A stretch of 64,000 nt of DNA from Blastocatellia bacterium (GTDB taxonomy: Bacteria > Acidobacteriota > Blastocatellia > UBA7656), in the NCBI GenBank assembly GCA_035649735.1, contig DASRIZ010000243.1, forward strand, positions 19,034 to 83,033. Direction: 5' to 3'. The position numbers and the translations under genes are program-made. Shown piece after piece: positions 15,877-63,217 of this stretch (position 1 is its first letter; each line of letters opens with the position of its first letter). The notes beneath the pieces are model-generated. The model was given only the letters and a program-made list of their open reading frames with translations. It ran no database searches and was not told the origin of the DNA.

Positions 15877-16785
15877 GTGCCAGAACTCCCTGACATCGCC
15901 GCTTACATCGAAGCTCTACAGCCGCGAGTGCTAAACCAGCCTATCCAGGAAATTCTGGTGACGAACCCTTTTCTATTGCGGTCGGTGGATCCGCCGTTAA
16001 GCGAAGCATGGGGAAAGCAAGTTATCGAACTTCGGCGGCTCGGTAAACGAATTGTGTTTGGCCTTGAAGAGGATCTCTTCCTGGTGATCCATTTGATGAT
16101 TGCCGGGCGCTTCCACTGGAAACCGAGCCGCCAAAAAGTTAACCGCCAAACGCTCGCGCTCTTTGTTTTTCCTTCGGGAACGTTGATGCTCACCGAAGCT
16201 GGTTCTAAGAAGCGGGCTTCGATGTACTTTGTCCGAGGCGATACGCTGGCCGCACACGACCCGCAAGGTCTTGAAGTCCTCGATGCTGATTTCGGAAGTT
16301 TCGCGTCTCGATTGACGGCCGAGAATCACACGCTGAAGCGCGCTCTTACGGATCCGCATAGCTTTAGTGGAATCGGTAATGCTTATTCGGATGAGATCCT
16401 GCATGCAGCAGGACTGTCGCCTCTCAAGCTAACGAAGCGTCTGGACGAAACTGAGATTCGGCGTCTCTACGACGCGACGCGGTCGACGCTTCAGTTTTGG
16501 ATAGACAAACTGTGTAAAGAAGCGAGGGAAGCGTTTCCGGAGAAAGTAACTGCATTTAGACCAGAGATGTCGGTTCACGGCCGCTACGGCAAGGCATGCC
16601 CCAGGTGCGGTACGCCCGTTCAGAGGATTGTCTACGCGGCGAACGAGGCAAACTACTGTCCTTCGTGTCAGACGGGCGGACGGTTGCTTGCCGACCGTGC
16701 TCTTTCGCGCTTGTTGAAGGAGGACTGGCCGCGAACTCTAGAGGAGCTCGAGCAAGTCAAAGAGCAAAGGGCGACGAGGAGCTAA
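15877..16785 (+). CDS. Fpg/Nei-family DNA glycosylase / AP lyase
   Basis: 302 aa. (M)PELPD N-terminus with catalytic Pro2, H2TH-like NAYSDEILHAAGLSP, C-terminal zinc finger CPRCG..CPSCQ. GTG start. Confidence 0.85.
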   Translation: MPELPDIAAYIEALQPRVLNQPIQEILVTNPFLLRSVDPPLSEAWGKQVIELRRLGKRIVFGLEEDLFLVIHLMIAGRFHWKPSRQKVNRQTLALFVFPSGTLMLTEAGSKKRASMYFVRGDTLAAHDPQGLEVLDADFGSFASRLTAENHTLKRALTDPHSFSGIGNAYSDEILHAAGLSPLKLTKRLDETEIRRLYDATRSTLQFWIDKLCKEAREAFPEKVTAFRPEMSVHGRYGKACPRCGTPVQRIVYAANEANYCPSCQTGGRLLADRALSRLLKEDWPRTLEELEQVKEQRATRS

Positions 16786-16857
16786 GGGCAAAGGGCAAAG
16801 GGCAAAGGGCAAAGGGACTCTTGGCTCTTAGCTCTTTGCCCTTCGCCCTTTGCTCTT
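16786..16857. repeat. Heptamer-armed hairpin, (GGGCAAA)x4 facing CTCTTTGCCCTTCGCCCTTTGCTCTTT; probable bidirectional terminator
   Basis: Fills the whole gap between the convergent Fpg-like and VWFA genes. The arms are reverse-complementary with mismatches. Confidence 0.8.
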
Positions 16858-18966: not shown

Positions 18967-19090
18967 CGTTTCTCTCCGGACGATACAGATTAAGTCGATC
19001 GTCGTCCATGAAAACGATCCGCTGGGGTGCTTAGTGTAACCGACGTTTTGTACGAATCAAAGTATTAACGGTTCACCGATAGTCGATGCT

Positions 19091-19475: not shown

Positions 19476-19595
19476 AACGTGATGAGTGAAACGTGAAGCG
19501 TGATGCGTGATGCGTGAAACAATCCGCACTCGTTACTTTTCTCGCATCACGTTTCAATCCAATTTCACTCATCACGTTTCACGCATCACGTTTCC
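19476..19595. repeat. Heptamer-armed hairpin (GTGATGC/GTGAAAC units)
   Basis: Left arm AACGTGATGAGTGAAACGTGAAGCGTGATGCGTGATGCGTGAAAC. Right arm GCATCACGTTTCAATCCAATTTCACTCATCACGTTTCACGCATCACGTTTCC. Lies between DUF2461 and the S24-like gene. Confidence 0.85.
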
Positions 19596-28718: not shown

Positions 28719-28840
28719 GGGTTTCTGGTTCCTGGTTTCTGGTTTCTGGTTCAAGAATCGCTCAAAGCTCCAGAAACAAGAAACCAAAAACCAGAGACCA
28801 GAAACCAGAAACCAGCAACCAAAAACCAAAAACCAGAAAC
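28719..28840. repeat. Heptamer-armed hairpin, TGGTTTC x~4.5 facing a GAAACCA-type array of ~10 units
   Basis: Left arm 28719-28752, right arm 28769-28840. Fills the cinA to 565-aa-gene gap. Confidence 0.9.
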
Positions 28841-38103: not shown

Positions 38104-38185
38104 GGCGTCTTAGCGGTTCTTTGCGTCTTTGCGCGAAACAAACAATTGCATTCGTTGCTTCGCGCGAAGGCGCAAAGCCTAAGGG
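38104..38185. repeat. Imperfect hairpin of the GCGTCTT-AGCGG-CTTTGCG family
   Basis: The left arm GGCGTCTTAGCGGTTCTTTGCGTCTTTGCGCGAAAC faces GCTTCGCGCGAAGGCGCAAAGCCTAAGGG. The left arm is about 85% identical to the reverse complement of 53564-53600. Confidence 0.7.
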
Positions 38186-38194
38186 AATGTTACT

Positions 38195-38581
38195 TTAAGG
38201 CCCTTTTTCCTCCATCACGGCAATTCGCTCGAAGAGTTCTCGGTTGTCGCCGCGGATCTCCAGGAGAACATCATTTAACGCGCGAATTACGTGCGCTTGT
38301 TTCCGAAAGTGCGCATCCGTTTCCCGAAAGTGCGCTTCCGTTTCGGTGCGAAGTAAGTCGATCCGACTCATTACCAGCTCGTGTTTTTGCTCGACGTTTT
38401 TATTGACGGCATCTCGAACGCTGGTGATGTCATCTCGAACGCTGGCAATCAGTTCTTGAGTCTCGATATGCCTCCTATCCATTACCCCTTGTATCGTGCT
38501 GAGTCGTTCCATCAGGGTTAAGAGTGTGGGCTCCGTATCGGGGACGTCATTCGGGGGCTTCTGAGTCAGCTCGTCGCTCAT
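38195..38581 (-). CDS. Hypothetical coiled-coil protein
   Basis: 128 aa. Heptad-like helical sequence with internal duplications (DDITSVRD/AVNKN; TEAHFRETDAHFRK). Weak purine-rich RBS. Confidence 0.45.
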   Translation of the reverse strand: MSDELTQKPPNDVPDTEPTLLTLMERLSTIQGVMDRRHIETQELIASVRDDITSVRDAVNKNVEQKHELVMSRIDLLRTETEAHFRETDAHFRKQAHVIRALNDVLLEIRGDNRELFERIAVMEEKGP

Positions 38582-40120: not shown

Positions 40121-41728
40121 ATGAAAATTTTATCGGCAGCCGAAATGCGGGAGGTTGACCGCTTAACCACCGAACGATTCGGCGTGCCGAGCCTCCTGCT
40201 GATGGAGAATGCCGCAGCGCGCACGGTTGAAGAAGCGGAGAAAAAGTTTGGTGATCTGGCTGACAAACGCGCGCTAATTGTCTGCGGGCGCGGTAACAAC
40301 GGCGGCGACGGCGCCGCAATCGCAAGGCTTCTTCACAATAAAGGCGCATCCGTTGATACGTTGCTGCTTGGCCGTGTTGCCGATTCCAAAGGTGACGCGC
40401 GAGCGAACTTTGAAGCGGCGCTGGATATAGCGACAAAGTCGGGCGCGGGCTTTCGATTCATAGAGATTGAAACGCCTGAGCAATTCTGGGCGGAGGCCTC
40501 CCGCAACTCACACAACCTGTTCTTCGATGCGATCTTCGGGACTGGCCTGACGCGCCCGGCGTCCGGACTGTTCGAAGAAGCGATTCATCTGTTAAACGAT
40601 CACACAACTGACTCACCAGTTATCTCGGTTGATATCCCTTCGGGTATTCCCTCCGACTCGCCCGAGCTTATTGGTCCGGCCGTAAAGGCTGACCTCACAG
40701 TCACCTTCACCGCGCCTAAGATCGGCAATATTCTGCCGCCGGCCGCCGATTTTTGCGGCGAGGTGGTCGTCTCCCCAATCGGCTCGCCCGGGGAATTAAT
40801 CAACTCATCGGGATCGCGATTGAATCTTGTTGAGCGCGACGATGTTGCTCGCTGGCTGTGTGCATCGCGCCGGAATCCACACGCAAACAAAGGTGACGTC
40901 GGCAAGGTGTTGGTTGTCGCCGGGTCTCGCGGGAAAACAGGAGCGGCCTGTCTTACGGGCGAAGCCGCCCTCCGAGCCGGATGCGGCTTGGTAACGATTG
41001 CGACGCCGGAATCCAGCCAATCAGTCGTCGCATCGCGAGTCATCGCCGAGTGCATGAGCGAACCGCTTGCAGAAACTAAGGCGGGTTCGGTTGCTCGCGA
41101 AGCTGCAGATCGCGTGCTGGAGTTGGCCGCCGAGCGCGATGTTGTTGCAGTCGGACCAGGGCTTGGCTCGAGCGACAAGTCTACTCGAGCGTTCGTGAGG
41201 GCAGTAGCAATGAAACGGGGTCAGCCGATTGTGATCGATGCTGATGGGCTTAACTCGCTTGCACCGTGGGCGAAGAATTTGAAAGGCAGCGTCGAGCTTC
41301 CAATGATCCTTACTCCACACCCTGGTGAAATGTCTCGTCTTGTATCCCGATCAATAGCCGATGTACTAAAGAACTCAATTGACGTTGCGCGGTCGTTTGC
41401 GGCCGATCAAAGCGTTATCCTCGTGCTAAAGGGCAGTCCAACCATCGTCGCCGCTCCCGACGGCGAGGTCTATGTCAACTCAACCGGGAACTCAGGAATG
41501 GCGACTGGCGGAACAGGCGACGTTCTGACCGGAATGATCGGGTCTTTTGTGGCGCAGAAGCCCGACGATCCGCTTAGCGCGACAATCGCGGCGGTTTACA
41601 TGCACGGTCTTGCGGGCGACATCGCCGCCTCGCGAATGGGTGTTCGCGCGCTGATTGCGTCGGACATCACTGCTCACCTCGGCGACGCGTTCACATCAAT
41701 CGGCGGAGAAGGTGAAAGGCCGGCCTGA
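40121..41728 (+). CDS. nnr: Bifunctional NAD(P)H-hydrate repair enzyme Nnr (epimerase + ADP-dependent dehydratase)
   Basis: 535 aa. YjeF-N domain (GRGNNGGDGAA) and a C-terminal carbohydrate-kinase domain (GGTGDVLTGMIG). Confidence 0.92.
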   Translation: MKILSAAEMREVDRLTTERFGVPSLLLMENAAARTVEEAEKKFGDLADKRALIVCGRGNNGGDGAAIARLLHNKGASVDTLLLGRVADSKGDARANFEAALDIATKSGAGFRFIEIETPEQFWAEASRNSHNLFFDAIFGTGLTRPASGLFEEAIHLLNDHTTDSPVISVDIPSGIPSDSPELIGPAVKADLTVTFTAPKIGNILPPAADFCGEVVVSPIGSPGELINSSGSRLNLVERDDVARWLCASRRNPHANKGDVGKVLVVAGSRGKTGAACLTGEAALRAGCGLVTIATPESSQSVVASRVIAECMSEPLAETKAGSVAREAADRVLELAAERDVVAVGPGLGSSDKSTRAFVRAVAMKRGQPIVIDADGLNSLAPWAKNLKGSVELPMILTPHPGEMSRLVSRSIADVLKNSIDVARSFAADQSVILVLKGSPTIVAAPDGEVYVNSTGNSGMATGGTGDVLTGMIGSFVAQKPDDPLSATIAAVYMHGLAGDIAASRMGVRALIASDITAHLGDAFTSIGGEGERPA

Positions 41729-42189
41729 TGAAGTCGCGATCGAAACCAGAAACCAGAAAGCCGAAACCAGAAACCCATTTGGGCGAGTTCATCACTCGCT
41801 CGGCGGACGAAACATTCGCACTCGCGAGACGGATCGGCAGTCATCTCAACGGCGGCGAAGTGTTTCTCCTTACAGGCGATCTTGGCGCTGGTAAGACAGT
41901 ATTTGCTAAAGGGCTTGCGGCGGGCTTAGGTATTGATCCGGCGGATGTGACCAGCCCGACATTCACACTAGTCAATTCTTACGAAGGTAGATTGCGATTT
42001 TTCCACATCGATCTTTATCGGCTCGATGTCGGGGCGCACCAGGGGCTCGGGCTTGAGGAGATGTTCGATGACGCTAACGGAGTTACTGTAATTGAATGGG
42101 CTGAGAGATTAGAAATCGTTCCGGAGAACGCGACCAATGTTGGGATGATTTATGTCTCCGACTCGGAACGCAGGATCACCATAAGATGA
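41728..42189 (+). CDS. tsaE: tRNA t6A37 biosynthesis ATPase TsaE
   Basis: LTGDLGAGKTVFAKG P-loop and SPTFTLVNSY. ATG 41728 overlaps the nnr stop (ATGA) but would translate a heptamer repeat. Alternative TTG start at 41779. Confidence 0.85.
   Translation: MKSRSKPETRKPKPETHLGEFITRSADETFALARRIGSHLNGGEVFLLTGDLGAGKTVFAKGLAAGLGIDPADVTSPTFTLVNSYEGRLRFFHIDLYRLDVGAHQGLGLEEMFDDANGVTVIEWAERLEIVPENATNVGMIYVSDSERRITIR
41742..41776. repeat. One-armed GAAACCA tandem array
   Basis: GAAACCAGAAACCAGAAAGCCGAAACCAGAAACCC. Same unit as 2848-2918 and 28719-28840. No complementary arm nearby. Confidence 0.8.
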
Positions 42190-42817: not shown

Positions 42818-42858
42818 CAGATCTTAGATTTGTGGATTTTAGATTTCGAGGTGTCAGG
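42818..42858. repeat. Short direct TAGATTT/GGATTTT repeat tract in the pyrH-frr gap
   Basis: CTTAGATTTGTGGATTTTAGATTTCGAG. The unit is related to the 45586-45670 element. No clear opposing arm. Confidence 0.5.
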
Positions 42859-43662: not shown

Positions 43663-43690
43663 CAAAAAAGCCTCTCTTGCGAGAGGCTCT
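43663..43690 (-). terminator. Intrinsic terminator downstream of tsf
   Basis: Minus strand: AGCCTCTC-GCAA-GAGAGGCT stem-loop (43669-43688) followed by TTTTTTG. Confidence 0.6.
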
Positions 43691-43698
43691 CTTGTTTA

Positions 43699-44370
43699 TT
43701 ACTTGTTGCCGCCAAGTAAGTCCTGGACTTCGGCTCCAAGATCGGATGTGCGTTTCTCGAGCCCCTCGCCCATCTTATAGCGAGTGAACCGCCGCACGCG
43801 TATGTTCTCGCCGGTTTTCGAAATCATTTGCCTGACCAGGTCACCGACGGTGATGTTCTGGTCTTTGACGAAGGCCTGCTCCATCAGACAGGTTTCCTGA
43901 TAGAACTTGCTGATCCGTCCTTCGACGATCTTATCGAGCACCTGTTGAGGCTTGCCGGCGTTCTTGGGATCCAGGTGTGCTTGTTCGAGCGCAATCTCAC
44001 GCTCTTTGTCGAGCACATCAGCGGGTACATCTTCCTTGTTCGTGTATCGCGGCTCAGCCGCGGTAATGTGCATCGCCAGATCGTGAACAAAAGCGCGGAA
44101 CTCTTCGGTGCGCGCAACGAAATCGGTCTGGCAGTTGACTTCCAACAGCACGCCGATCTTGCCACCCGCATGAATGTACGCGTTCACCAGTCCTTCGGCG
44201 GCCACCCGTCCCTCCTTTTTGGTTGCCGAGGCAAGTCCGTGCTTGCGCAGATTCTCGATAGCCTTTTCTTCATCGCCCTCTGCTTCGGTAAGCGCTTTTT
44301 TGCATTCCATCATGCCCGCGCCGGTCTTTTGCCTGAGAGCTTGGATCGCTGCCGCTGTTACATTAGCCAT
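43699..44370 (-). CDS. tsf: Elongation factor Ts
   Basis: The family N-terminus starts at ATG 44370 ([27 protein letters not shown]), with AGGGAGAG upstream. 223 aa. Confidence 0.93.
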
Positions 44371-44483
44371 TACTACGTGACTCTCCCTATCGCTGTGAAT
44401 TTGGTTGATTGAAGATGGACAAGGCAAGACGAGGCGCCTGGTCCTGCCGAGCGACGCTCACCCTTTGCCTCTCGCGCAAGCCG

Positions 44484-45491
44484 TTATTCTGAAGCTTCCG
44501 CGGTTTCCGCTTTCGGAGGTTGCTCGAGGTCGCCGGTCGCCACCGCAACCGGTTCAGGTTCTGGTGGAGCGCTCTCGGACTCGGCAGTCGAGGATGCTTC
44601 GGGAATGATCGGCTCAGGAATCGGCGGCGCGCCTGGCGGTACGTAAGTAGTTCGTCGCGCACCCCTACTACGTTCACCGCCGCGTCCGCGTCCGCGGCCG
44701 CGATCACGATCGCCTCTTTCCGAACGGTCGCGTGTCGACTCCGGTGACCCAGTCGCTGCGGCTTCGGTTCCTTCGGAAGCCTCACCAATCTCGGCGCCGC
44801 CCTCTTTCACCGTCTGTTGACCCTCGATGATTGCATCGGCCATCTTAGCTGCAAACAATCGCACCGCGCGCAACGCGTCATCGTTTCCCGGCACAATGTA
44901 GTCGATTCCATCGGGGTTGCAATTCGTATCGACGATGGCAACGGTCGTAATGCCAAGCTTGTTGGCCTCGTGAACGGCAATCTCTTCCTTATTTGAGTCG
45001 ATGATGAAGATGACGTCAGGCAACACCTTCATATCGCGTATTCCGGCGAGATTTTTCTCGAGAGCTGCGTGCTCGCGATCGAGTCCAAGACGCTCCTTTT
45101 TGGTAAGCGCGTCGAAGCGTCCATCGGTGCGCATTGTCTCGATGTCTTTCATGCGCTGGATGGATTTCTGCACGGTTTGGAAGTTAGTCAACAACCCGCC
45201 GAGCCAGCGTTGATTGACATAAAACTGGCCGCAACGTTTTGCTTCTTCTTCGACGGCATCCTGCGCCTGGCGCTTGGTGCCGACAAACATGAAGCTGGCG
45301 CCGTCCATGCCCTTCTGGGTTACAAACTTGACCGCCTCCTTGAAGAGCCGCTGGGTCTTCTGGAGATCAATGATGTAAATTCCGTTTCGTTCACCGAAGA
45401 TAAACTCCTTCATCTTCGGGTTCCAACGCCTGACCTGATGTCCGAAGTGGACGCCAGCTTCAAGCAGTTCCTTCATCGTTACTGTGACCAA
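44484..45491 (-). CDS. rpsB: 30S ribosomal protein S2 with ~109-aa low-complexity C-terminal tail
   Basis: TTG start 5 nt after [33 protein letters not shown]. The tail is rich in RG then P/E. Confidence 0.95.
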
Positions 45492-45585: not shown

Positions 45586-45670
45586 GGAATTGCGGATTTC
45601 GGATTGCTGATCTCGGATTGCAGATTGCTGATTGAAATCCGCAATCCACAATTCGAAATCCGCAATCGAA
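45586..45670. repeat. Heptamer-armed hairpin (TGCGGAT/TTCGGAT units) in the rpsI-rpsB gap
   Basis: Left arm GGAATTGCGGATTTCGGATTGCTGATCTCGGATTGCAGATTGCTGATT faces AAATCCGCAATCCACAATTCGAAATCCGCAATCGAA. Confidence 0.85.
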
Positions 45671-53510: not shown

Positions 53511-53600
53511 GCGTCTCTGCGGTCCCTGGCGTCTTTGCGATAAACAAAAAACTTAAAAGTGTGGTTTCGCAAACACGCAAAGTGCCGCTAAGACGCAAAG
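53511..53600. repeat. Imperfect hairpin of the GCGTCTT-AGCGG-CTTTGCG family; probable terminator after the permease gene
   Basis: GCGTCTCTGCGGTCCCTGGCGTCTTTGCGATAAAC faces GTTTCGCAAACACGCAAAGTGCCGCTAAGACGCAAAG. Related to 38104-38139 in the opposite orientation. Confidence 0.7.
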
Positions 53601-53607
53601 AATTTTG

Positions 53608-53636
53608 TTGACACAAAAACGAGTCTCGTTTAGATT
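53608..53636 (+). promoter_or_regulatory. Putative sigma-70-type promoter of an orphan short transcription unit
   Basis: TTGACA (53608-53613), a 17-nt spacer, then TAGATT (53631-53636). Confidence 0.5.
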
Positions 53637-53715
53637 CAGACCTTCGCAAGCGGTAGATTAATCGGAACCTGCGCGAAAGTTCGCGCGTAGAAGGTACGTC
53701 AGGCGAGCAAATTTG

Positions 53716-53850
53716 ATGATGCAAGAAAACAACAAACAAACGATTGAAGCCATCGGCGTGGCGCTTTGGAGCGCCCACCTCGAGCAGGTCTGTCCGACTG
53801 GCTTCAAGCCGTTCTTTGTTATGGACCAAACTGCTCGTACAGGACCCTAG
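53716..53850 (+). CDS. Possible 44-aa ORF inside the orphan unit
   Basis: MMQENNKQTIEAIGVALWSAHLEQVCPTGFKPFFVMDQTARTGP. Only a weak GGCGAG upstream. The unit could equally be a non-coding RNA. Confidence 0.25.
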   Translation: MMQENNKQTIEAIGVALWSAHLEQVCPTGFKPFFVMDQTARTGP

Positions 53851-53874
53851 CAATTCATAAGCATCAAGCCCGCC

Positions 53875-53916
53875 AGCCGCCAGCGTCAGTTTGATGCTGG
53901 CGGCTTTTGATTTTTT
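53875..53916 (+). terminator. Intrinsic terminator
   Basis: AGCCGCCAGC (53875-53884) pairs with GCTGGCGGCT (53896-53905), followed by TTTTGATTTTTT. The tandem CGCCAGC and a GCATCAA/TTGATGC pair allow alternative pairings. Confidence 0.7.
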
Positions 53917-55778: not shown

Positions 55779-57872
55779 TTAGTCGCCAAATCCCGCCGGC
55801 GTAACCTCCGGCTGAGGCTTTGAACTCTTCAGCTGAATCTGAACGATCTGAGCTTCCGGCGACGCCGGTTCCTTCAGAACATGCTGTCTGTAGAGCTTGG
55901 CCATTCGGTCATTCTCCTGCTGTTCCTTGATTCGATCACGCTGTTTTCGAAGCTTCTCTTCGCGCGAAGTCTTTGCGATGCCGAGATCGTCGAGATCGTG
56001 TTGAATCTCTTTAGTAACAAGCGCCTCGTTGAGCACCAGGTTGTGTGCAGCGTTTTCCAACGCGACCGACTTGCCGCCCGCAAAGATCTCGTGTCGCCCG
56101 TGTTCTTCGTACCACTTTGTGAGCGTCGCGGTCATATGCATTTTCTCGATGATATTGCGCCAGCCCACCCCGGTGTTGTAAGCGCAGAACGAAATCTCGC
56201 CTTCCTGGGTCGCATACGGGATGATGCACTGCTCAGTGCGGCGGAAGTCATAGTTGAACAGATCCTGGAACCACATCCCGGCGATAAACAGAAAGTTCCA
56301 GCGGTCCGCGCGTCGCCTCTCGACGTCTTCGATAGTGCGGTCGCCGGAAACCTTGCCGTAGTCCTTGCCCGTCGCGCCGAAGGTCTTGTCGAATTTCTTC
56401 AGCAAATCAACGAGCTTGAAGTGAGTCGGCGCCTTGAACGGATCGTAATTCTTCATTAGCGCAAGGGCCATTCCTACGATCGACAACTTCTTGCCGCGCG
56501 CGGCGTCGTTGACTTTCATTATATCCTTGGCCAGTTGCTCGGCGTGCAGGAACGCGGTGACCGGCGCCGCTTCTTTGGTCTCTTTGTCGATCATCACCGC
56601 CATGCCGATTCCGCAGTTTGGATGACACCCGCAGTTGAGCTGGCCCCAATCGTTCTGCGGCCCGTGAACCAGATCGGCCCAATCGGTAAACGTCGCCATG
56701 AACGAAATCGGGAACCAGTCCCGAATCGGCTCGCCCAGCCCGGTCTGAGTCTTCACATCATGAGCCATGTGCGAGAGGGTGTATCGTTGTGCTTGCCGGC
56801 GCTCGTCGGTTATCTCTTCGTCGCGCCCGGTGAACGACACCGGCTGAAACGAGAGAAAGTTGATCTTCTTCGGGTTGTCGAGCGCGAACTGAATGATGCG
56901 GCCCACTTGTTCGTTGTTGATGCCGTTGATAATCGTGGTGACCGGGACGATATCCACACCGGCGTTGTGCAGATTCTCGATCGCGCGGAGTTTTACGTCA
57001 AAAAGGTTGCCGACCTTTCGGTGTTCATTTGCGGCATTGCCGATTCCATCGAATTGCAAATAAGCGAAACGCAGCCCGGCTTCCGCTGCTTGTTTGCAGA
57101 ACTCGGGACTCTTGGCAAACTCGATGCCGTTGGTTGCGGCCTGAACGCTGTTGTAGCCGACCTCGCGAGCATATCGAACGGCATCCAGAAAGAACGGGGA
57201 CATGGTCGGCTCGCCGCCCGAGAACTGAACCGACATCTGGCGGCGAGGTTTTATGGAAATCGCGTTGTCCAGCAGTGTCTTGATGTCCTCCCAGGTGAGC
57301 TCGTGAACGAATCCGACCTGGTTGGCGTCCATGAAACAAGGATCGCACATCATATTGCACCGGTTGGTGAGATCGATGGTCAACACCGAGCCGCGCCCGT
57401 GCTTGATTGTGCTTGTTCCGTGTTTGTGAAGTTTTTCGTCGTTGTGCGCGCGAATATCTCGCCCGGGAAAGACCTCTTCAAGGTGTTTGAAAAACTCGGG
57501 GTCATTCGACATTACATCTTCAAAGTGACCATGTTTCTCGCAATCCTTGACCATCAGAATTTTGCCGTCGCGCTCGATTATCTGAGCCTTGATTTCGCCG
57601 ACCTTTTCGTTGAGCAATATTTCGTGAGGCAGCTTTCCGTCGACGATCTGCTGGCGTATTTCAGGAATGCATTTCGGGCACAATGAATCAGTGGTCCGCG
57701 GCCAGCCAAGTGGCGGTTTCGTCTTCTGATAAGACTTCAACAGCGGCTTATCAGACCATCTCGGCGTGAAGGAAGGGTTAGGTTTGATGCGGTTGAGCCG
57801 TTCGAAAACTGCCCATCCGCCGCGCGCGATATAAGTCAATCCCTTCTCCGCGTACTTCACAGGTTTATGCAT
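55779..57872 (-). CDS. Radical SAM protein, tetraether lipid synthase (Tes / GDGT-MAS)-like
   Basis: 697 aa. N-terminal CPKC...CEKHGH metal site, CNMMCDPC radical SAM motif, SVQFSGGEPT, LQFDG, SFQPVSFTGR, CGCHPNC, and C-terminal FQDLFNYDFRRTEQCIIPYATQEGEISFCAYNTG. The order and spelling of these blocks match my memory of Methanocaldococcus MJ0619-type proteins. AGGAGA RBS. Confidence 0.75.
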   Translation of the reverse strand: MHKPVKYAEKGLTYIARGGWAVFERLNRIKPNPSFTPRWSDKPLLKSYQKTKPPLGWPRTTDSLCPKCIPEIRQQIVDGKLPHEILLNEKVGEIKAQIIERDGKILMVKDCEKHGHFEDVMSNDPEFFKHLEEVFPGRDIRAHNDEKLHKHGTSTIKHGRGSVLTIDLTNRCNMMCDPCFMDANQVGFVHELTWEDIKTLLDNAISIKPRRQMSVQFSGGEPTMSPFFLDAVRYAREVGYNSVQAATNGIEFAKSPEFCKQAAEAGLRFAYLQFDGIGNAANEHRKVGNLFDVKLRAIENLHNAGVDIVPVTTIINGINNEQVGRIIQFALDNPKKINFLSFQPVSFTGRDEEITDERRQAQRYTLSHMAHDVKTQTGLGEPIRDWFPISFMATFTDWADLVHGPQNDWGQLNCGCHPNCGIGMAVMIDKETKEAAPVTAFLHAEQLAKDIMKVNDAARGKKLSIVGMALALMKNYDPFKAPTHFKLVDLLKKFDKTFGATGKDYGKVSGDRTIEDVERRRADRWNFLFIAGMWFQDLFNYDFRRTEQCIIPYATQEGEISFCAYNTGVGWRNIIEKMHMTATLTKWYEEHGRHEIFAGGKSVALENAAHNLVLNEALVTKEIQHDLDDLGIAKTSREEKLRKQRDRIKEQQENDRMAKLYRQHVLKEPASPEAQIVQIQLKSSKPQPEVTPAGFGD

Positions 57873-58021: not shown

Positions 58022-59053
58022 CTAGGCCTTTTCAGTTTGCTCGATTTGATAAACCGTCTTTATCGCCTGTACTGACTCGCGGCGGACCGCGCCTTTCGCT
58101 GCAAGCGTTTGCGGATCGCGCCAGTTGTCGAACGTCGCGACCTGATGTACGCAGGCGATCGTGCAATAAGGCGCACACGCCTTCTTCGTCAGGTACTCCC
58201 TACGAATATCCTCTTTTGTATAGCTAGTGAGAGGGACGCCAGGGTAGCCGCGTTGTTGCGAGCAGTAGTGTACAAGCCCGTCTTCGCAAATGTAAAGATA
58301 GCGAGCGCCGGCACGGCAGCGCCACTGATTTGGCTTACCGTCTACAAGGTTCTTCTGAAAACTGTTCCACCTGACGTGCCCCTTCTTGCCCAGGTCCTTC
58401 ATCTGAAAGTAAACATCACGCTCGACGCCCTTTAGCGGTTTGAGCGTTCCGAGTCCGTCGTGAATGATCCCCAATGAGCTCGAGTGGCCAAGTTCGACCG
58501 CGCGCCGACCGATAGTCCGGGCGTCTTCGGGGGTCTTTATGCCCCCTCCAATCACCGAGTTTATGTTCACCCTGAATTCGGCCAGTTCCGAAAGCCAGAC
58601 GAGCTTCTTGTCCAACACCTTGAGGCTCTTTTTGGAAACATCGTCGGGTTGTACGTTGTCAATGCTGATCTGCATGTACTCGAGACCGGCTCTATTCAAA
58701 TTCTTGATTTTCTCTTTTGTAAGCAGGTACCCGTTGGTGATCAGACAGGCCAGCATCCCTCGTTTGCGGATTCTGCCGACGATCTCCTCGATGTGCGGAT
58801 GCATCAACGGTTCGCCCCCGCTGATTATGATTGCCGTTGTTCCCAGATCCGCGAGTTTATCCAGCCGCTCGAACATCATTTCTCGAGGCACGGGTTTCGA
58901 AACGTCATCATATTCGTTGCAATAAGAACAAGATAGATTGCAGCGGCGCATTGGAATAATGTGCGCAAGGATCGGATGGTTCGTCGACGCCAGGCCCTTG
59001 GCCATGAACCTGTATGCGCGAAAATACATTTTTACTCGACTTGTTAGCTTCAT
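58022..59053 (-). CDS. Radical SAM protein with SPASM/twitch-like C-terminal Cys cluster
   Basis: 343 aa. [16 protein letters not shown], and C-terminal [30 protein letters not shown]. Confidence 0.8.
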
Positions 59054-59466: not shown

Positions 59467-61347
59467 CTAGTCATCCGCCACGCTTTCGGTAAACGTGCGT
59501 TTGTAGTCCTGATAGAACTGCAACTGATAAAGTCGCCAATAGAGCCCGCGCTGTGCGAGCAGGTCCTGGTGGGTGCCCGTCTCGCGTATTTCGCCTTTGT
59601 GCATCACGATTATTTTGTCTACGGATTGAATCGTGGACAGCCGATGGGCGACCACAATCGACGTGCGGCCTTCCATCAAACGTTCAACTGCATCCCGAAT
59701 GAGCAGCTCGGTTTCAGTATCGATCGAACTCGTCGCCTCATCGAGAATCAGGACGCGAGGATCAAACGCCAGCGCGCGTGCGAAGCTGATGAGTTGTTTC
59801 TGGCCAACCGACAACCCTGCTCCCCGCTCGCGTAATTCGGCGCCATATCCTTCGGGCAGTCTTTGGATGAACGTATCCGCGTGAACCTGGCGAGCGGCGT
59901 CGCGTAACCCGGCGTCACTGATTGAGCGATTGCCTAATCGAATGTTTGTTGCGATGTCCCCCGAAAACAGAAACACATCCTGTAGCACGATGCTGAAGTT
60001 CGCCCGCAATTCTTCGAGATTCAGCTCGCGCACGTCCACGCCGTCAAGGAGAATCTGCCCGCGTTGAATGTCATAGAATCTCAACAGAAGGTTGGTGATC
60101 GTGGTCTTACCGGCTCCCGTGTGGCCGACGAATGCGACCCGCTCGCCTGGTTCGACGGTAAACGACACATCTTTTAATATCCAATCTTCGTCGTGATAGG
60201 CAAACCAGACGTTCCGGAACTCTATGTGACCGCGTGCGCGTCCTATGCTCACCGGTTTTTCCGGGGATGAAATGGTGATCGGTTCGTCGAGCAGTTTGAA
60301 GATTCGCTCCGATGACGCCATCGCCGATTGTAGAATGTTGTACTTCTCGCTTATGTCGGAAATCGGCTCGTAGAACATTCTCGCCAGCTGGATGAACGCT
60401 ACGAGCGTACCGATCGTCGCTGTTCCGCGGATAACTTCGCCCCCGCCGTACCAGATAATCAGTCCGATACCGATTGACCCAATGATCTCGACCGCCGGGT
60501 AGAACACCGCGTAATAAAAAATCGTTTCGATGTTTGCCTTACGATGGGCCTGGTTGATGTCGTCGAACTTGCGCAGCTCCTTTTCTTCGCGGTTGAACAA
60601 TTGAACGACCGGCATTCCGGTGATGTGCTCCTGCAGAAACGCGTTGATGCGTGCGATGCGCACCCGGACCTCGCGGAACGACGATCGGGCCCCGCGTCTG
60701 AACCAGCTGGTGAGTCCGGCCAACAGAGGCAGGATCGCGAAAGAAACAAGTGCCAGCTTCCAGTTCTCGACAAACATCCAAATCACGATGAAGAAGATCA
60801 TGGCCACGTCGCCGAAGATCGCTATCACACCGGCGGTGAACATCTCGTTTAGCGCGTCGACATCGGTTGTCAGTCGGGTCATCAGCCTGCCGACCGGGTT
60901 GCGATCGTAGAACTGGACCGGCAGTTTTTGCAGATACGCAAATATCTGTTTGCGCAGGTCGTACATTATGTACTGTCCCATCGTCTGCATAACGATGGCC
61001 TGGGTGTACTGAACCGCGAACGCAGCAACACTGGCGAGCAAGAATATGATCGAGATAAAAACGATCCCCTGATAAGCGCTTTCGCCGAAACCAAATCGAC
61101 CGGCGAGCTGCTTCAAAAAGAGCGCGAAGCCAGACGCGGGTTTTCCCGGATCGGGTGCAAGAAATAAATCGATGGCCGCTTTTGTTAGAGGCGGTCCGGC
61201 AAGAACCAACGGCGCGCTGAGAACGGTGAGCACCAGCGACGTCAAAGCATACGATTTGTACGGCCACAAATAGGTGAGCAGCCGGCGCATTAGCCGAGCG
61301 TCGTACGCTTTGCCGAGAACCTCTTCTTCGTGATGCGATTCCGCCAT
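59467..61347 (-). CDS. ABC exporter half-transporter (TMD-NBD), consensus Walker B / degenerate signature
   Basis: 626 aa. Six TM segments. Walker [10 protein letters not shown], signature LSVGQ, Walker [11 protein letters not shown]. Confidence 0.92.
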
Positions 61348-61469
61348 GATAGGGGATAGGGGATAGGTTATAGGGGACAGGTTACAGGCAACACAGGCGA
61401 GAGGTTACAGGTGACCTGTAACCTATTCCCTGTAACCTGTAACCTATCCCCTGTAATCTGTAACCTATC
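61348..61469. repeat. Heptamer-armed long hairpin (AGGGGAT/AGGTTAC units) between the two ABC genes
   Basis: Left arm 61348-61412, right arm 61414-61469. The centre is AGGTTACAGGT-G-ACCTGTAACCT. Confidence 0.9.
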
Positions 61470-61474
61470 ATTTC

Positions 61475-63217
61475 TCAACTCGCCGCAAGCTCTTCTTCCA
61501 ACAGCTGCTTCTCGTACAACTCGGCGTAAAGCCCTCCGCTGGCAATCAATGAATCATGAGTGCCGCGTTCGGAGATTCGCCCGTCGTCGAGTACCACGAT
61601 CAAGTCCGCATCCTTGACCGTCGATACTCGATGCGACACGATCAAGCTCGTACGGCCGCTCATGATGTTTCGCAGGTGCCCGAGTATCTTCTCCTCCGTG
61701 TATGTGTCCACCGACGACAGCGCGTCATCCAGAATCAGAATTCGAGGCCTTCGAATCAATGCGCGGGCGATTGCTGTGCGTTGCTTTTGCCCGCCTGAGA
61801 GAGTGATACCCCGTTCGCCAACCAGGGTTTCGAATCCTTCGGGGAACTCGCGGATGTCATCCGCTATTCCGGCTTCGATCGCCGCTCGCTCGATGTCATC
61901 GGCGCTCGCGTGCTCGACCCCGAACGCGATGTTTTCGGCGATGGTTTCGCTGAACAGGAACGTCTCCTGAGGCACATAGCCGATCGACGTTCGCAAAACC
62001 GACAGCGGGATCTCGCGGATAGACTTGCCGTCTATGAGCACCTGTCCCTCCTCGGCCTCGAGCAGCCGGGTGACCAGGTTCATCAGCGTCGATTTCCCGG
62101 ACCCGACTCCGCCGACGAAGGCGACCGTCTGACCGGCATCGATATGAAGGTTGATGCCTTTTAAAGCCGGGTCGCGCGCCTCACCGTAGGTAAGGGTCAG
62201 ATCGCGGAACTCAATCTCGCCGCGAATCGCGTCGATTCCGCTAGCGCGATCGGCGTCCCTGATTGCCGGCTCGATTGACATGATGTGATGCATGCGTCCC
62301 ATCGAAGCCATGCCTCGCTGGAAGATATTTATCACCCAACCGAGAGCGATCATCGGCCACACCAGCAGACCGAGATACAGAGTGAACTGAACGAACTCGC
62401 CGATAGATATCGTTCCGCTGATGACCAGATGCCCGCCGTACCACAGGACTGCGATGAACCCAAGACCGATAAAGAACTGCAGGATCGGGTGAAAAATCCC
62501 AGACAGCCTTATGAGCTGCAGATTACGATCGACGAACTCCCGGTTGACCTGTTTGAAGCTCTCTATCTCCGCTTCTTCCTGGGTGTAGGCCCGAATTACC
62601 CGCACGCCCGCGAGCGATTCCTGCGCGCGGTTTGAAACCGTTCCGAAGTACTCCTGGACCTTCTCGAACCGATCGTGTATCCGCTTAGAAAAGTAATTAG
62701 TGGCAGTGACAACGAGCGGCATTGACAGGAATGCAAGCAGCGTTAGTCGCCAGTTTATGGAAGCCATCAGCGGGATCAACAACGCCATCGCGAAAATCGT
62801 GTTCATCGAATACATTAACGCAGGCCCGACGATCATCCTCACTGCCGACAGATCGTTGGTTGCGCGTGCCATCAAATCACCTGTTCGATGCGTTTGATAA
62901 AACTCGAATGGAAGTTTTTGGAGGTGTTCGTAGAAATCGTTCCGCAAATCGTACTCGATGTTTCGCGACATATTGATGAGCAGACGTCTCTGGGTGAACA
63001 GAAAAACGCCCTGGACGAGCGCGATCGAAATCAGCAACCCGGCGTAAAGAAGAAGCTCCGACTCGACGACTTCGGTTGCGAGGTCGTCAACCGCGTGACG
63101 GAGAACAAGCGGGGCGGCCACCTTTACCACGTTGGTCAAGAGGACGCAGGCTGAGCCGATGATCAGAATGCGCTTGTAGGGAGTGAAGTAGCTTAGAAGC
63201 TTGCGAAACGGACTCAT
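61475..63217 (-). CDS. ABC exporter half-transporter (TMD-NBD), Walker B Asp variant / consensus signature
   Basis: 580 aa. Walker A GGVGSGKST, signature LSGGQ, Walker B ILILDDALSS (Asp in place of the catalytic Glu). Confidence 0.92.
   Translation of the reverse strand: MSPFRKLLSYFTPYKRILIIGSACVLLTNVVKVAAPLVLRHAVDDLATEVVESELLLYAGLLISIALVQGVFLFTQRRLLINMSRNIEYDLRNDFYEHLQKLPFEFYQTHRTGDLMARATNDLSAVRMIVGPALMYSMNTIFAMALLIPLMASINWRLTLLAFLSMPLVVTATNYFSKRIHDRFEKVQEYFGTVSNRAQESLAGVRVIRAYTQEEAEIESFKQVNREFVDRNLQLIRLSGIFHPILQFFIGLGFIAVLWYGGHLVISGTISIGEFVQFTLYLGLLVWPMIALGWVINIFQRGMASMGRMHHIMSIEPAIRDADRASGIDAIRGEIEFRDLTLTYGEARDPALKGINLHIDAGQTVAFVGGVGSGKSTLMNLVTRLLEAEEGQVLIDGKSIREIPLSVLRTSIGYVPQETFLFSETIAENIAFGVEHASADDIERAAIEAGIADDIREFPEGFETLVGERGITLSGGQKQRTAIARALIRRPRILILDDALSSVDTYTEEKILGHLRNIMSGRTSLIVSHRVSTVKDADLIVVLDDGRISERGTHDSLIASGGLYAELYEKQLLEEELAAS

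Follow-up and report, generated by a model that had tools for sequence, protein, structure and literature searches.

Opposed heptamer arrays between two ABC transporter genes of a Blastocatellia bacterium: probably the empty stem of a four-helix-bundle gene cassette

Two co-directional genes for ATP-binding cassette (ABC) half-transporters in a Blastocatellia bacterium (Acidobacteriota; GCA_035649735.1, contig DASRIZ010000243.1) are separated by a gap made up almost entirely of tandem 7-nt units, arranged as two opposed arrays. The question raised by this locus is where such a structure comes from, and whether it serves the genes on either side. The window considered here is the whole 64,000-nt stretch containing it (positions 19,034–83,033 of the contig), and coordinates below are counted from its first base; loci compared with it are numbered with the prefix L. 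The answer arrived at is that the hairpin is probably a cargo-less copy, consisting of the stem only, of a family of gene cassettes resembling the intervening sequences (IVSs) of 23S rRNA genes, in which heptamer arrays enclose a small gene of the PF05635 (S23p) family.

Read base by base, the gap (61348–61474, 127 nt) is almost entirely one fold-back, as a preliminary description of the window, made from its letters alone, had stated. The left arm (61351–61412, plus strand) has about nine AGGNNAY heptamers with one 2-nt irregularity, in the order AGGGGAT AGGGGAT AGGTTAT AGGGGAC AGGTTAC AGGCAAC (AC) AGGCGAG AGGTTAC AGGT. The right arm (61414–61469, plus strand) has eight of RTNNCCT type, ACCTGTA ACCTATT CCCTGTA ACCTGTA ACCTATC CCCTGTA ATCTGTA ACCTATC, which on the minus strand read as an AGG-first array again (AGGTTACAGGTTACAGGGAATAGGTTACAGG). 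Between them the G at 61413 is the center of symmetry and, in the predicted fold, the hairpin tip, so that the opposed arms around a central G were described correctly. Tandem Repeats Finder (TRF) recovers both arms as arrays of period 7, 14, and 21, with 94% matches at period 21 in the right arm. Both neighboring genes are read from the minus strand. The upstream one (61475–63217) encodes an ABC permease/ATPase half-transporter of 580 aa, its stop codon (complement TCA at 61475–61477) 5 nt from the stem base; the downstream one (59467–61347) encodes a paralogous half-transporter of 626 aa, with its ATG (complement CAT at 61345–61347) 3 nt past the last heptamer and no visible Shine-Dalgarno sequence before it.

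The two arrays are predicted to pair into a stem of about 50 bp, the minimum free energy being −71.6 kcal/mol (z −8.1) for the minus strand, which is the mRNA sense, and −77.7 kcal/mol (z −9.2) for the plus strand; no fold of equal stability was obtained from 200 shuffles. Over the whole window there are 16 TRF rows of period 7, where 30 dinucleotide shuffles give 1.2 on average and 4 at most, an excess of about 13-fold. The pattern (AGGNNNN)x4+AGG, expected 0 times, is found only at 16785 and 61351–61452. Fold energies and shuffled controls had both been proposed as checks on the preliminary description, and both bear it out for this gap and for the window's heptamer content. It was also right that the gap is neither coding nor a CRISPR array, which is ruled out by contiguous 7-nt units without spacers. 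Nor is this a 23S rRNA IVS proper: it lies between two ABC genes, and Rfam 15 at gathering score gave 0 matches, rRNA included, in the whole window. The hairpin had no blastn match among the PLSDB plasmids. An intrinsic terminator is rejected as well, with no T-run after either arm and a terminator scan that was silent here while calling one at 53875–53905, so the terminator role suggested earlier finds no support at this locus.

The closest genomes by the ABC protein are metagenome-assembled genomes (MAGs) of Blastocatellia/Acidobacteriota, at 92–80% amino-acid identity, and the exact protein was also found in soil and rhizosphere metagenomes. (A cyanobacterial origin of the window, suggested by the short tandemly repeated repetitive (STRR) sequences of that group, is ruled out by these Blastocatellia relatives and by the presence of only 3 HIP1 sites.) The same ABC–ABC gap in relatives is the most informative comparison. 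The stem there holds no open reading frame (ORF) in the window, one in L012, and two in L197. From the upstream stop codon, the order in L012 is AGGGGAC AGGGAAC AGGGAAC AGGGGAC, an ORF of 124 aa, CCTGTTC CCTGTTC CCTGTAA CCTGTAA CCT, and the ATG of the downstream ABC gene. The ORF product belongs to PF05635 (23S_rRNA_IVP; Pfam E 1e-39) and to TIGR02436, a four-helix-bundle family (5e-37), with a weak NCBIfam match to DivGenRetAVD, the Avd protein of diversity-generating retroelements (DGRs). L197 has an S23p protein 91% identical to that of L012, and its AGGTTAC/AGGGGAC and CCTGTAA arms enclose both this gene and an ORF of 85 aa, so these stems can hold variable cargo. The second ORF (L197:2956–3213) has its own Shine-Dalgarno sequence and no Pfam or PADLOC match. 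Because the L012 and L197 gaps have matching arms around an S23p gene, the focal arms are read as those of a gene cassette with an empty loop.

Other relatives have different things in the same place. L010 has a distant S23p gene (31% identity) between different arms, (TGTCCGT)x4 and (CAACTGA)x3; the latter (L010:9960–9991) is one base off the TAACTGA of Beggiatoaceae and encodes the last residues of the protein and its stop codon. The gap has hairpins of AGGGACT/AGACTAG units in L009 and L014 and of CATCTGA units in L013, and is short, with no hairpin, in L011, L015, L016, L018, and L024. In the closest relatives, L006–L008, another small gene lies in the gap upstream of the orthologue of the downstream ABC gene, with no heptamer arms; by eye, its translated C-terminus looks like that of a retropepsin-like aspartic protease. 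Overall, small insertions seem to have a hot spot in the ABC–ABC gap.

The association of PF05635 genes with opposed arms is general. Eighty PF05635 loci were fetched from metagenomes and 57 of them read by hand from repeat-finder output, in batches of 16, 20, and 21; as controls, 32 equally sized regions of these contigs were read in the same way. Opposed arrays of AGGNNNN/NNNNCCT type span the ORF in 48 of the 57 (14/16, 16/20, and 18/21 by batch) and in none of the controls, among which there is one short heptamer hairpin without an ORF. Heptamer-armed hairpins are otherwise sparse: about 1.5 Mb of loci from Blastocatellia, Terriglobia, and Acidobacteriaceae yielded only 26. The focal units belong to a widely dispersed family, AGGNNAY/RTNNCCT. 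A 12-mer from the focal arms, CCTGTAACCTGT, occurs in 18 of the 80 PF05635 loci, in L012, and in one cyanobacterial S23p locus, and in none of the other 79 genome loci; the preliminary statement that there is no single shared consensus thus does not hold for these arms. The right arm, read on the minus strand, matches the 5′ arm of the L115 PF05635 cassette at 28 of 30 bases. S23p proteins closely related to that of L012 are accompanied by AGGTTAC, AGGGGAC, AGGGGAT, AGGGAAC, or AGGTGAC units, which is the focal family, and more distant S23p proteins by AGGTTCT, AGGGTCG, AGGATTC, AGGTGTC, AGGGACT, and similar ones. Two of these match hairpins without ORFs, AGGTGTC in Acidobacteriaceae loci and AGGGACT in L009 and L014. 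All 13 of the AGG-type ORF-less hairpins read for polarity are AGG-first, like the cassettes, and none is CCT-first.

In the cassettes, the 5′ arm is found 0–120 nt ahead of the start codon and the 3′ arm after the stop codon. L137 is a compact example: (GGGGATA)x7 runs from within the upstream gene's stop codon to 1 nt before the S23p GTG, and past the S23p stop codon there are (CCCTATY)x4, GGAGG, and the ATG of the next gene. This whole cassette is predicted to fold with its arms paired (−229 kcal/mol, z −5). Arms abut the neighbors' stop and start codons in L012, L197, L137, and L166 as they do in the focal gap, and the cassette follows a co-directional gene in the majority of clear-cut cases (L010, L012, L115, L123, L134, L137, L166, and L194–L197), with L116 as an exception. 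Of the features of a miniature inverted-repeat transposable element (MITE), inverted arms are present in the focal gap; no target-site duplication is visible there or in L012, L137, or L197, and no transposase is involved. A PADLOC search with the S23p proteins and the 85-aa co-cargo ORF gave no defense-system match, and no DGR parts (reverse transcriptase, template repeat, variable repeat) adjoin the cassettes seen.

Cultured organisms have similar arrangements. Plasmid pANA02 of Anabaena sp. 90 carries about 40 AGGTGAC/AGGGAAC units, an annotated four-helix-bundle gene, and (CTGTCAC)x4, located between cas6 and cas4; a Calothrix brevissima NIES-22 plasmid has AGGGTGT arms around a gene annotated “S23 ribosomal protein,” and a Lyngbya-like genome has an S23p gene with the same arm arrangement. 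The L012 S23p protein has more than 2,500 relatives, many of them about 70% identical, across Blastocatellia, Terriglobales, Gemmatimonadota, and Lyngbya. To judge from these sequence comparisons, the arms travel with the S23p gene across phyla. Structure 2GSC in the Protein Data Bank (XCC0516 of Xanthomonas campestris) is an S23p homologue (E 1e-24), and in a supplementary table of Rehm et al. (PMC4692102) GGGAATC array number 15 overlaps the start of XCC0516. The Anabaena example (L227, pANA02 43671–45230) is one of several S23p cassettes between cas6 and cas4 in cyanobacterial CRISPR-cas operons (also L194–L196). Their 3′ heptamer arm lies inside the annotated cas4 start, which suggests that this start has been mis-called. 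A large clustering screen lists “23S rRNA IVP” as CRISPR-associated (PMC10910872), and such cassettes may be the reason.

The closest described parallel is the 23S rRNA IVS of Coxiella burnetii and Leptospira (PMC4990558), likewise an inverted-repeat stem with a PF05635/S23p ORF in its loop. The Coxiella IVS has terminal inverted repeats and is cleaved by RNase III in the stem, and directly before the S23p ATG it has two to three GACAGAT heptamers, variable in number among strains, a further likeness to the cassettes. Versions with a decayed ORF or none exist, and the element is regarded as selfish (PMC4990558). The IVSs differ in lying within helix 25 or 45 of 23S rRNA, from which they are excised by RNase III, while the element considered here lies between two protein-coding genes, has arms consisting wholly of tandem AGGNNNN units, and, in the focal copy, has no ORF.

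On this model, a full cassette would consist of a 5′ AGGNNNN array, a small PF05635/TIGR02436 gene, and a complementary 3′ NNNNCCT array, placed in an intergenic gap with its arms touching the neighbors' stop and start codons. The stem would fold the insert out of the operon mRNA and bring the stop codon of the first gene next to the start codon of the second, so that an insert might be tolerated even within operons for subunits of one complex, such as the ABC heterodimer or kdpA-kdpB. By analogy with the S23p-bearing rRNA IVSs and a Haemophilus hmw hairpin, the long double-stranded stem would likely be an RNase III substrate. The element would more probably be a passenger, whether selfish or neutral, than a regulator in the service of the host, and RNase III and the PF05635 protein are possible candidates for the RNA-processing and repeat-reading roles proposed in the preliminary description. 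Compared to the full cassette, the focal gap has the AGG-first and CCT arms and their abutment on neighboring codons, and it is filed as a cargo-less derivative rather than a full member because there is no PF05635 gene between its arms.

Several observations weigh against this interpretation. There is no PF05635 gene anywhere in the 64-kb window, and the focal loop contains no recognizable ORF remnant, so that loss of cargo looks the same as never having had any. Among the 57 PF05635 loci read, nine have no arms, and neither does the PF05635 copy on the gamma plasmid of Nostoc PCC 7120; the metagenome contigs carry no host assignment. The sense-strand fold is weaker than the antisense one, and there is thus no sign of selection on structure in the sense transcript specifically. 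Within the window, the tie to PF05635 extends only to the AGG-type hairpins (61348 and perhaps 16786); the CGTGAAA, GGTTTCT, and CGGATTG unit classes yielded no such partner. GGTTTCT x2 and AGGGCAA x2, sought among the fetched loci, occur in strain copies only or not at all, and in IMG/VR scans the 21 matches to (TTTCTGG)3 and the seven to (AGGGCAA)3 have no PF05635 NIAEG motif near them.

Variation between strains bears on several of the readings considered. Comparison was restricted to contigs encoding flanking proteins that are 100% identical. Even so, all four heptamer hairpins compared vary by unit insertions or deletions or in unit composition, as the preliminary description of them as slippage-prone, structured sequences would predict. 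The gap at 28719 is 125, 132, or 139 nt long, with unit substitutions (CCAGAAA/CCAGGAA, TTTTTGG/TTGCTGG); at 19476 the window has one 7-nt unit more than nine other contigs; at 16786 the 5′ arm has five units in the window and 13 in L226, while the 3′ arm has five and six; and at 61348 unit composition differs in L004 and L005, both of which end inside the hairpin. The two arms change independently of each other. The turnover of 7-nt units in the arrays is therefore rapid, by gain as well as loss, which is what replication slippage would produce. Strain variants of the palindromic element at 38104, discussed below, are ordinary substitutions and indels and not 7-nt steps. In some strains (L086–L092) a unit substitution creates an ATG within the 19476 hairpin that becomes the called start (calls of 130 vs. 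143 aa). Contigs ending inside heptamer hairpins (L004, L005, L098–L100, L103, L093, L094) point to these as a systematic cause of contig breaks in short-read metagenome assemblies of Acidobacteriota.

Could the arms simply be home-grown simple-sequence repeats, grown by slippage and given inverted partners by template switching, with PF05635 genes inserting or being retained in the loops and no cassette ever involved? Heptanucleotides are the commonest repeats of 5–11 nt in many prokaryotes, and a slippage origin has been proposed for such long simple-sequence repeats (LSSRs), according to Mrazek (2007) as cited in PMC4679880; the focal gap has the features of such LSSR- or STRR-type repeats, with tandem 7-nt units and copy number changing in 7-nt steps. 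Such an origin would also account for arms that vary independently and are often unequal (10 vs. 4–5 units at 28719, 13 vs. 6 in L226), for the several unit classes and the one-armed arrays with no S23p partner, and for a window with no S23p gene at all. It does not readily account for finding the same unit family with the same S23p subfamily in different phyla, with unit type tracking S23p divergence, or for the invariant AGG-first polarity (13/13). Because units and S23p match across phyla, local making of the arms by each host is hard to credit, and this explanation is considered unlikely. A mundane origin of another kind, a chimeric fold-back or repeats collapsed in assembly, might be suspected from the contigs that end inside hairpins (L004, L005, L098–L100, L103). 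However, the full-length 127-nt gap is identical in three further independent assemblies (L001–L003, from different samples and pipelines), so the focal fold-back is not an assembly artefact, and equivalent structures occur in finished cyanobacterial plasmids and long-read MAGs; it is hardly conceivable that the structure arose in this way.

A role in host regulation under selection is a further alternative, with the hairpin acting as an attenuator, as an mRNA-stabilizing or -processing site, or as a coupling device for the ratio of ABC subunits, and with unit number tuning expression. Hairpins of different units do occur in this gap in four lineages (the window, L009, L013, and L014), the stem base adjoins both stop and start codons, and there is a precedent in Haemophilus influenzae, where an (ATCTTTC)n hairpin in the hmw1A 5′ untranslated region (5′-UTR) controls expression via RNase III cleavage and where hairpin and RNase III are both needed for changes in repeat number (PMC12721329). 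There too a transcribed heptamer repeat forms one arm of a long RNA hairpin; the differences are that it is a 5′-UTR contingency locus for a surface adhesin in a host-adapted pathogen, with only one repetitive arm. But eight orthologous gaps (L006–L008, L011, L015, L016, L018, L024) have no hairpin, copy number and unit sequence are not conserved even among strains with identical proteins, the same type of element occurs in unrelated contexts, convergent genes included, and the focal hairpin is not terminator-like. Regulation by the host therefore seems decidedly improbable as an explanation. Still less can be said for a G-quadruplex (G4) repeat of GGGNATC type acting via G4 DNA or RNA. AGGGGAT and AGGGGAC resemble the GGGGA(C/T)T and GGGAATC units described elsewhere (PMC4692102), but there are just three runs of at least three Gs on one strand and two on the other, among GGTTAC units, where a canonical intramolecular G4 needs four; the fully complementary partner arm favors a duplex stem; and G3 runs are missing from many arm families (AGGTTCT, AGGATTC, AGGTGAC). 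The chances of this are very small.

The preliminary description did not recognize a described class of element here, which turns out to be incorrect for the hairpin as such. Xanthomonas genomes have 70–75 convergent heptamer pairs each, opposed arrays that can form stem-loops (Rehm et al., 2015; PMC4692102), and the focal gap shares this arrangement, with the same unit on opposite strands and a stem-loop, and has no G4-competent GGGNATC array. The Xanthomonas GGGAATC and Nostoc GGGGA(C/T)T repeats are also alike in being G-rich, 7 nt long, intergenic, mostly between co-directional genes and within 50 bp of ORF ends, with opposite-strand pairs and large length variation among close relatives. 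They differ in having one consensus unit per genome, read as G4-forming, and no link to four-helix-bundle genes is mentioned for them (PMC4692102); in the present case a genome has several unit classes, the host belongs to the Acidobacteriota, and a G4 is unlikely at the focal locus. Heptamer arrays of unexplained function adjoin start codons in Beggiatoaceae, cyanobacteria, and Bacteroidetes (MacGregor, 2015; PMC4679880). These STRR and TAACTGA repeats are similar in ending a few nt from start codons, in 7-nt indels, and in causing contig breaks, but most of them are direct arrays with one arm and one unit, seldom paired in inverted orientation, and no cassette gene has been described for them (PMC4679880). 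Together with the Coxiella IVS (PMC4990558), these mean that the heptamer hairpin has already been described, whereas its link to a PF05635 cassette was not found: the literature search, with incomplete coverage of subscription journals, yielded no paper connecting four-helix-bundle genes outside rRNA with inverted heptamer arrays, and none on heptamer repeats of this sort in Acidobacteria.

To our knowledge, the S23p/four-helix-bundle family, abundant and moving between phyla, has no known role outside DGRs. The cyanobacterial STRR heptamers are reportedly due to Mazel in 1990, and the heptamer repeats of cyanobacteria, Xanthomonas, Beggiatoaceae, and Bacteroidetes have been without an accepted origin or function for decades. 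With S23p genes usually wrapped in heptamer arrays, and ORF-less hairpins having the same arms, these two puzzles may be one testable system. A wider proposal, offered tentatively and with considerable doubt, is that PF05635 proteins and opposed heptamer arrays form a single multi-phylum system, in which the protein would read AGGNNNN arrays of its own, in the form of RNA or single-stranded DNA, and help them to be expressed, maintained, or spread. The ORF-less hairpins (cyanobacterial STRRs, Xanthomonas GGGAATC pairs, and those of Acidobacteriota) would then be non-autonomous partners, much as REPINs, the hairpins formed by paired repetitive extragenic palindromic (REP) sequences, are to the REP-associated tyrosine transposase (RAYT). 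If true, this would give the rRNA-IVS protein family a function and heptamer repeats, first reported in 1990, an origin. REP sequences and bacterial interspersed mosaic elements (BIMEs), like REPIN-RAYT systems, are similarly short intergenic palindromes in operons, with many non-autonomous copies and few protein partners (PMC3116915), but REPs have a fixed consensus of 20–40 nt and a transposase, while heptamer arms vary in unit number and no catalysis is known for their S23p partner. By structure, PF05635 proteins and the DGR protein Avd are homologues, pentameric four-helix bundles that, together with the reverse transcriptase, bind nucleic acid (PMC10053308); next to the cassettes seen here there is no reverse transcriptase, template repeat, or variable repeat.

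The rest of the window shows how far the focal structure is typical of it. The preliminary description listed seven further loci with the same architecture and two one-armed versions, as one window-wide family. The family is in fact mixed, with several heptamer classes plus a REP-like palindrome: five of the seven are opposed heptamer arrays, the other two are not, and both one-armed arrays were correctly identified. At heptamer elements and REP-like copies alike, the gaps are filled codon to codon. Most of the ten loci were said to lie between co-directional genes, and seven do, with two between convergent genes and one past a gene end. This extends the heptamer phenomenon to Acidobacteriota, including core operons (kdpAB, rpsI-rpsB, pyrH-frr, and heterodimeric ABC exporters).

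Two of the heptamer hairpins are of AGG type, the focal one and (AGGGCAA)n ... (TTGCCCT)n at 16779–16857, which occupies the whole space from one stop codon to the other between two convergent genes. Four have non-AGG units. The hairpin at 19476–19595 (CGTGAAA/CGTGATG) is downstream of a DUF2461 gene. That at 28719–28840 (GGTTTCT ... CCAGAAA), with unequal arms of about 4–5 and 10 units, is between a cinA-like gene and one encoding 565 aa. At 2848–2924, a hairpin with a TTTCTGG/CCAGAAA unit lies between kdpA and kdpB, with the kdpA stop codon inside its first unit and the kdpB Shine-Dalgarno sequence and ATG after its last. The fourth (CGGATTG ... CAATCCG, 45586–45670) is immediately past rpsI and about 95–110 nt upstream of rpsB. 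The one-armed arrays each end a few nt before a start codon: (GAAACCA)x5 at 41742–41776 (plus strand), between an upstream stop codon and the likely TTG start of tsaE, and an AAATCTA-like array at 42818–42858 (minus strand), ending 5 nt ahead of the frr ATG. The unit sequence had been said to differ between loci, but 2848, 28719, and 41742 share a common unit (CCAGAAA/TTTCTGG). The longest tsaE ORF wrongly runs through (GAAACCA)5 (41728–41778), and the Pfam TsaE match begins only after the TTG at 41779. Arrays thus shift called start codons at tsaE here, at cas4 in Anabaena sp. 90, and at XCC0516.

The two loci that are not heptamer arrays fit the REP/BIME type (PMC3116915), being dispersed copies of one fixed palindromic consensus, which the focal arms are not. 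Copy 1 (TTTGCGTCTTAGCGGT.CTTTGCGTCTTTGCG ..., 38104–38185) lies between convergent genes, and copy 2 (53511–53600), with T- and A-runs on its flanks, resembles a terminator acting in both directions. The copies are in both orientations, with the consensus TTTGCGTCTTAGCGGT.CTTTGCGTCTTTGCGCGAAACAAA...TTTGTTTCGCGCAAAGACGCAAAG.ACCGCTAAGACGCAAA, distinct from the heptamer hairpins.

Near copy 1, a 21-nt tandem repeat (38299–38344; 2.2 copies, 92% matches) lies within a 128-aa ORF (38195–38581, minus strand) that has a weak apolipoprotein-like match; it is probably a coding repeat of seven residues, unrelated to the intergenic heptamers. Beyond copy 2 there is a promoter-like site at 53608–53636 (TTGACA, 17 nt, TAGATT), followed about 240 nt on by the region's best canonical terminator, with a T-run (53875–53905). 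No long ORF and no Rfam match lie between these, and 53608–53915 may encode a small RNA. The ABC pair is followed directly downstream by two adjoining radical S-adenosylmethionine protein genes, one at 58022–59053 (minus strand) and one at 55779–57872 (minus strand) encoding 697 aa. The latter matches the model for the tetraether lipid synthase Tes with E 2e-97 and 327 bits, below the 450-bit cut-off; a Tes-like gene beside the ABC pair may bear on the synthesis of membrane-spanning lipids of the branched glycerol dialkyl glycerol tetraether (brGDGT) type in Acidobacteria.

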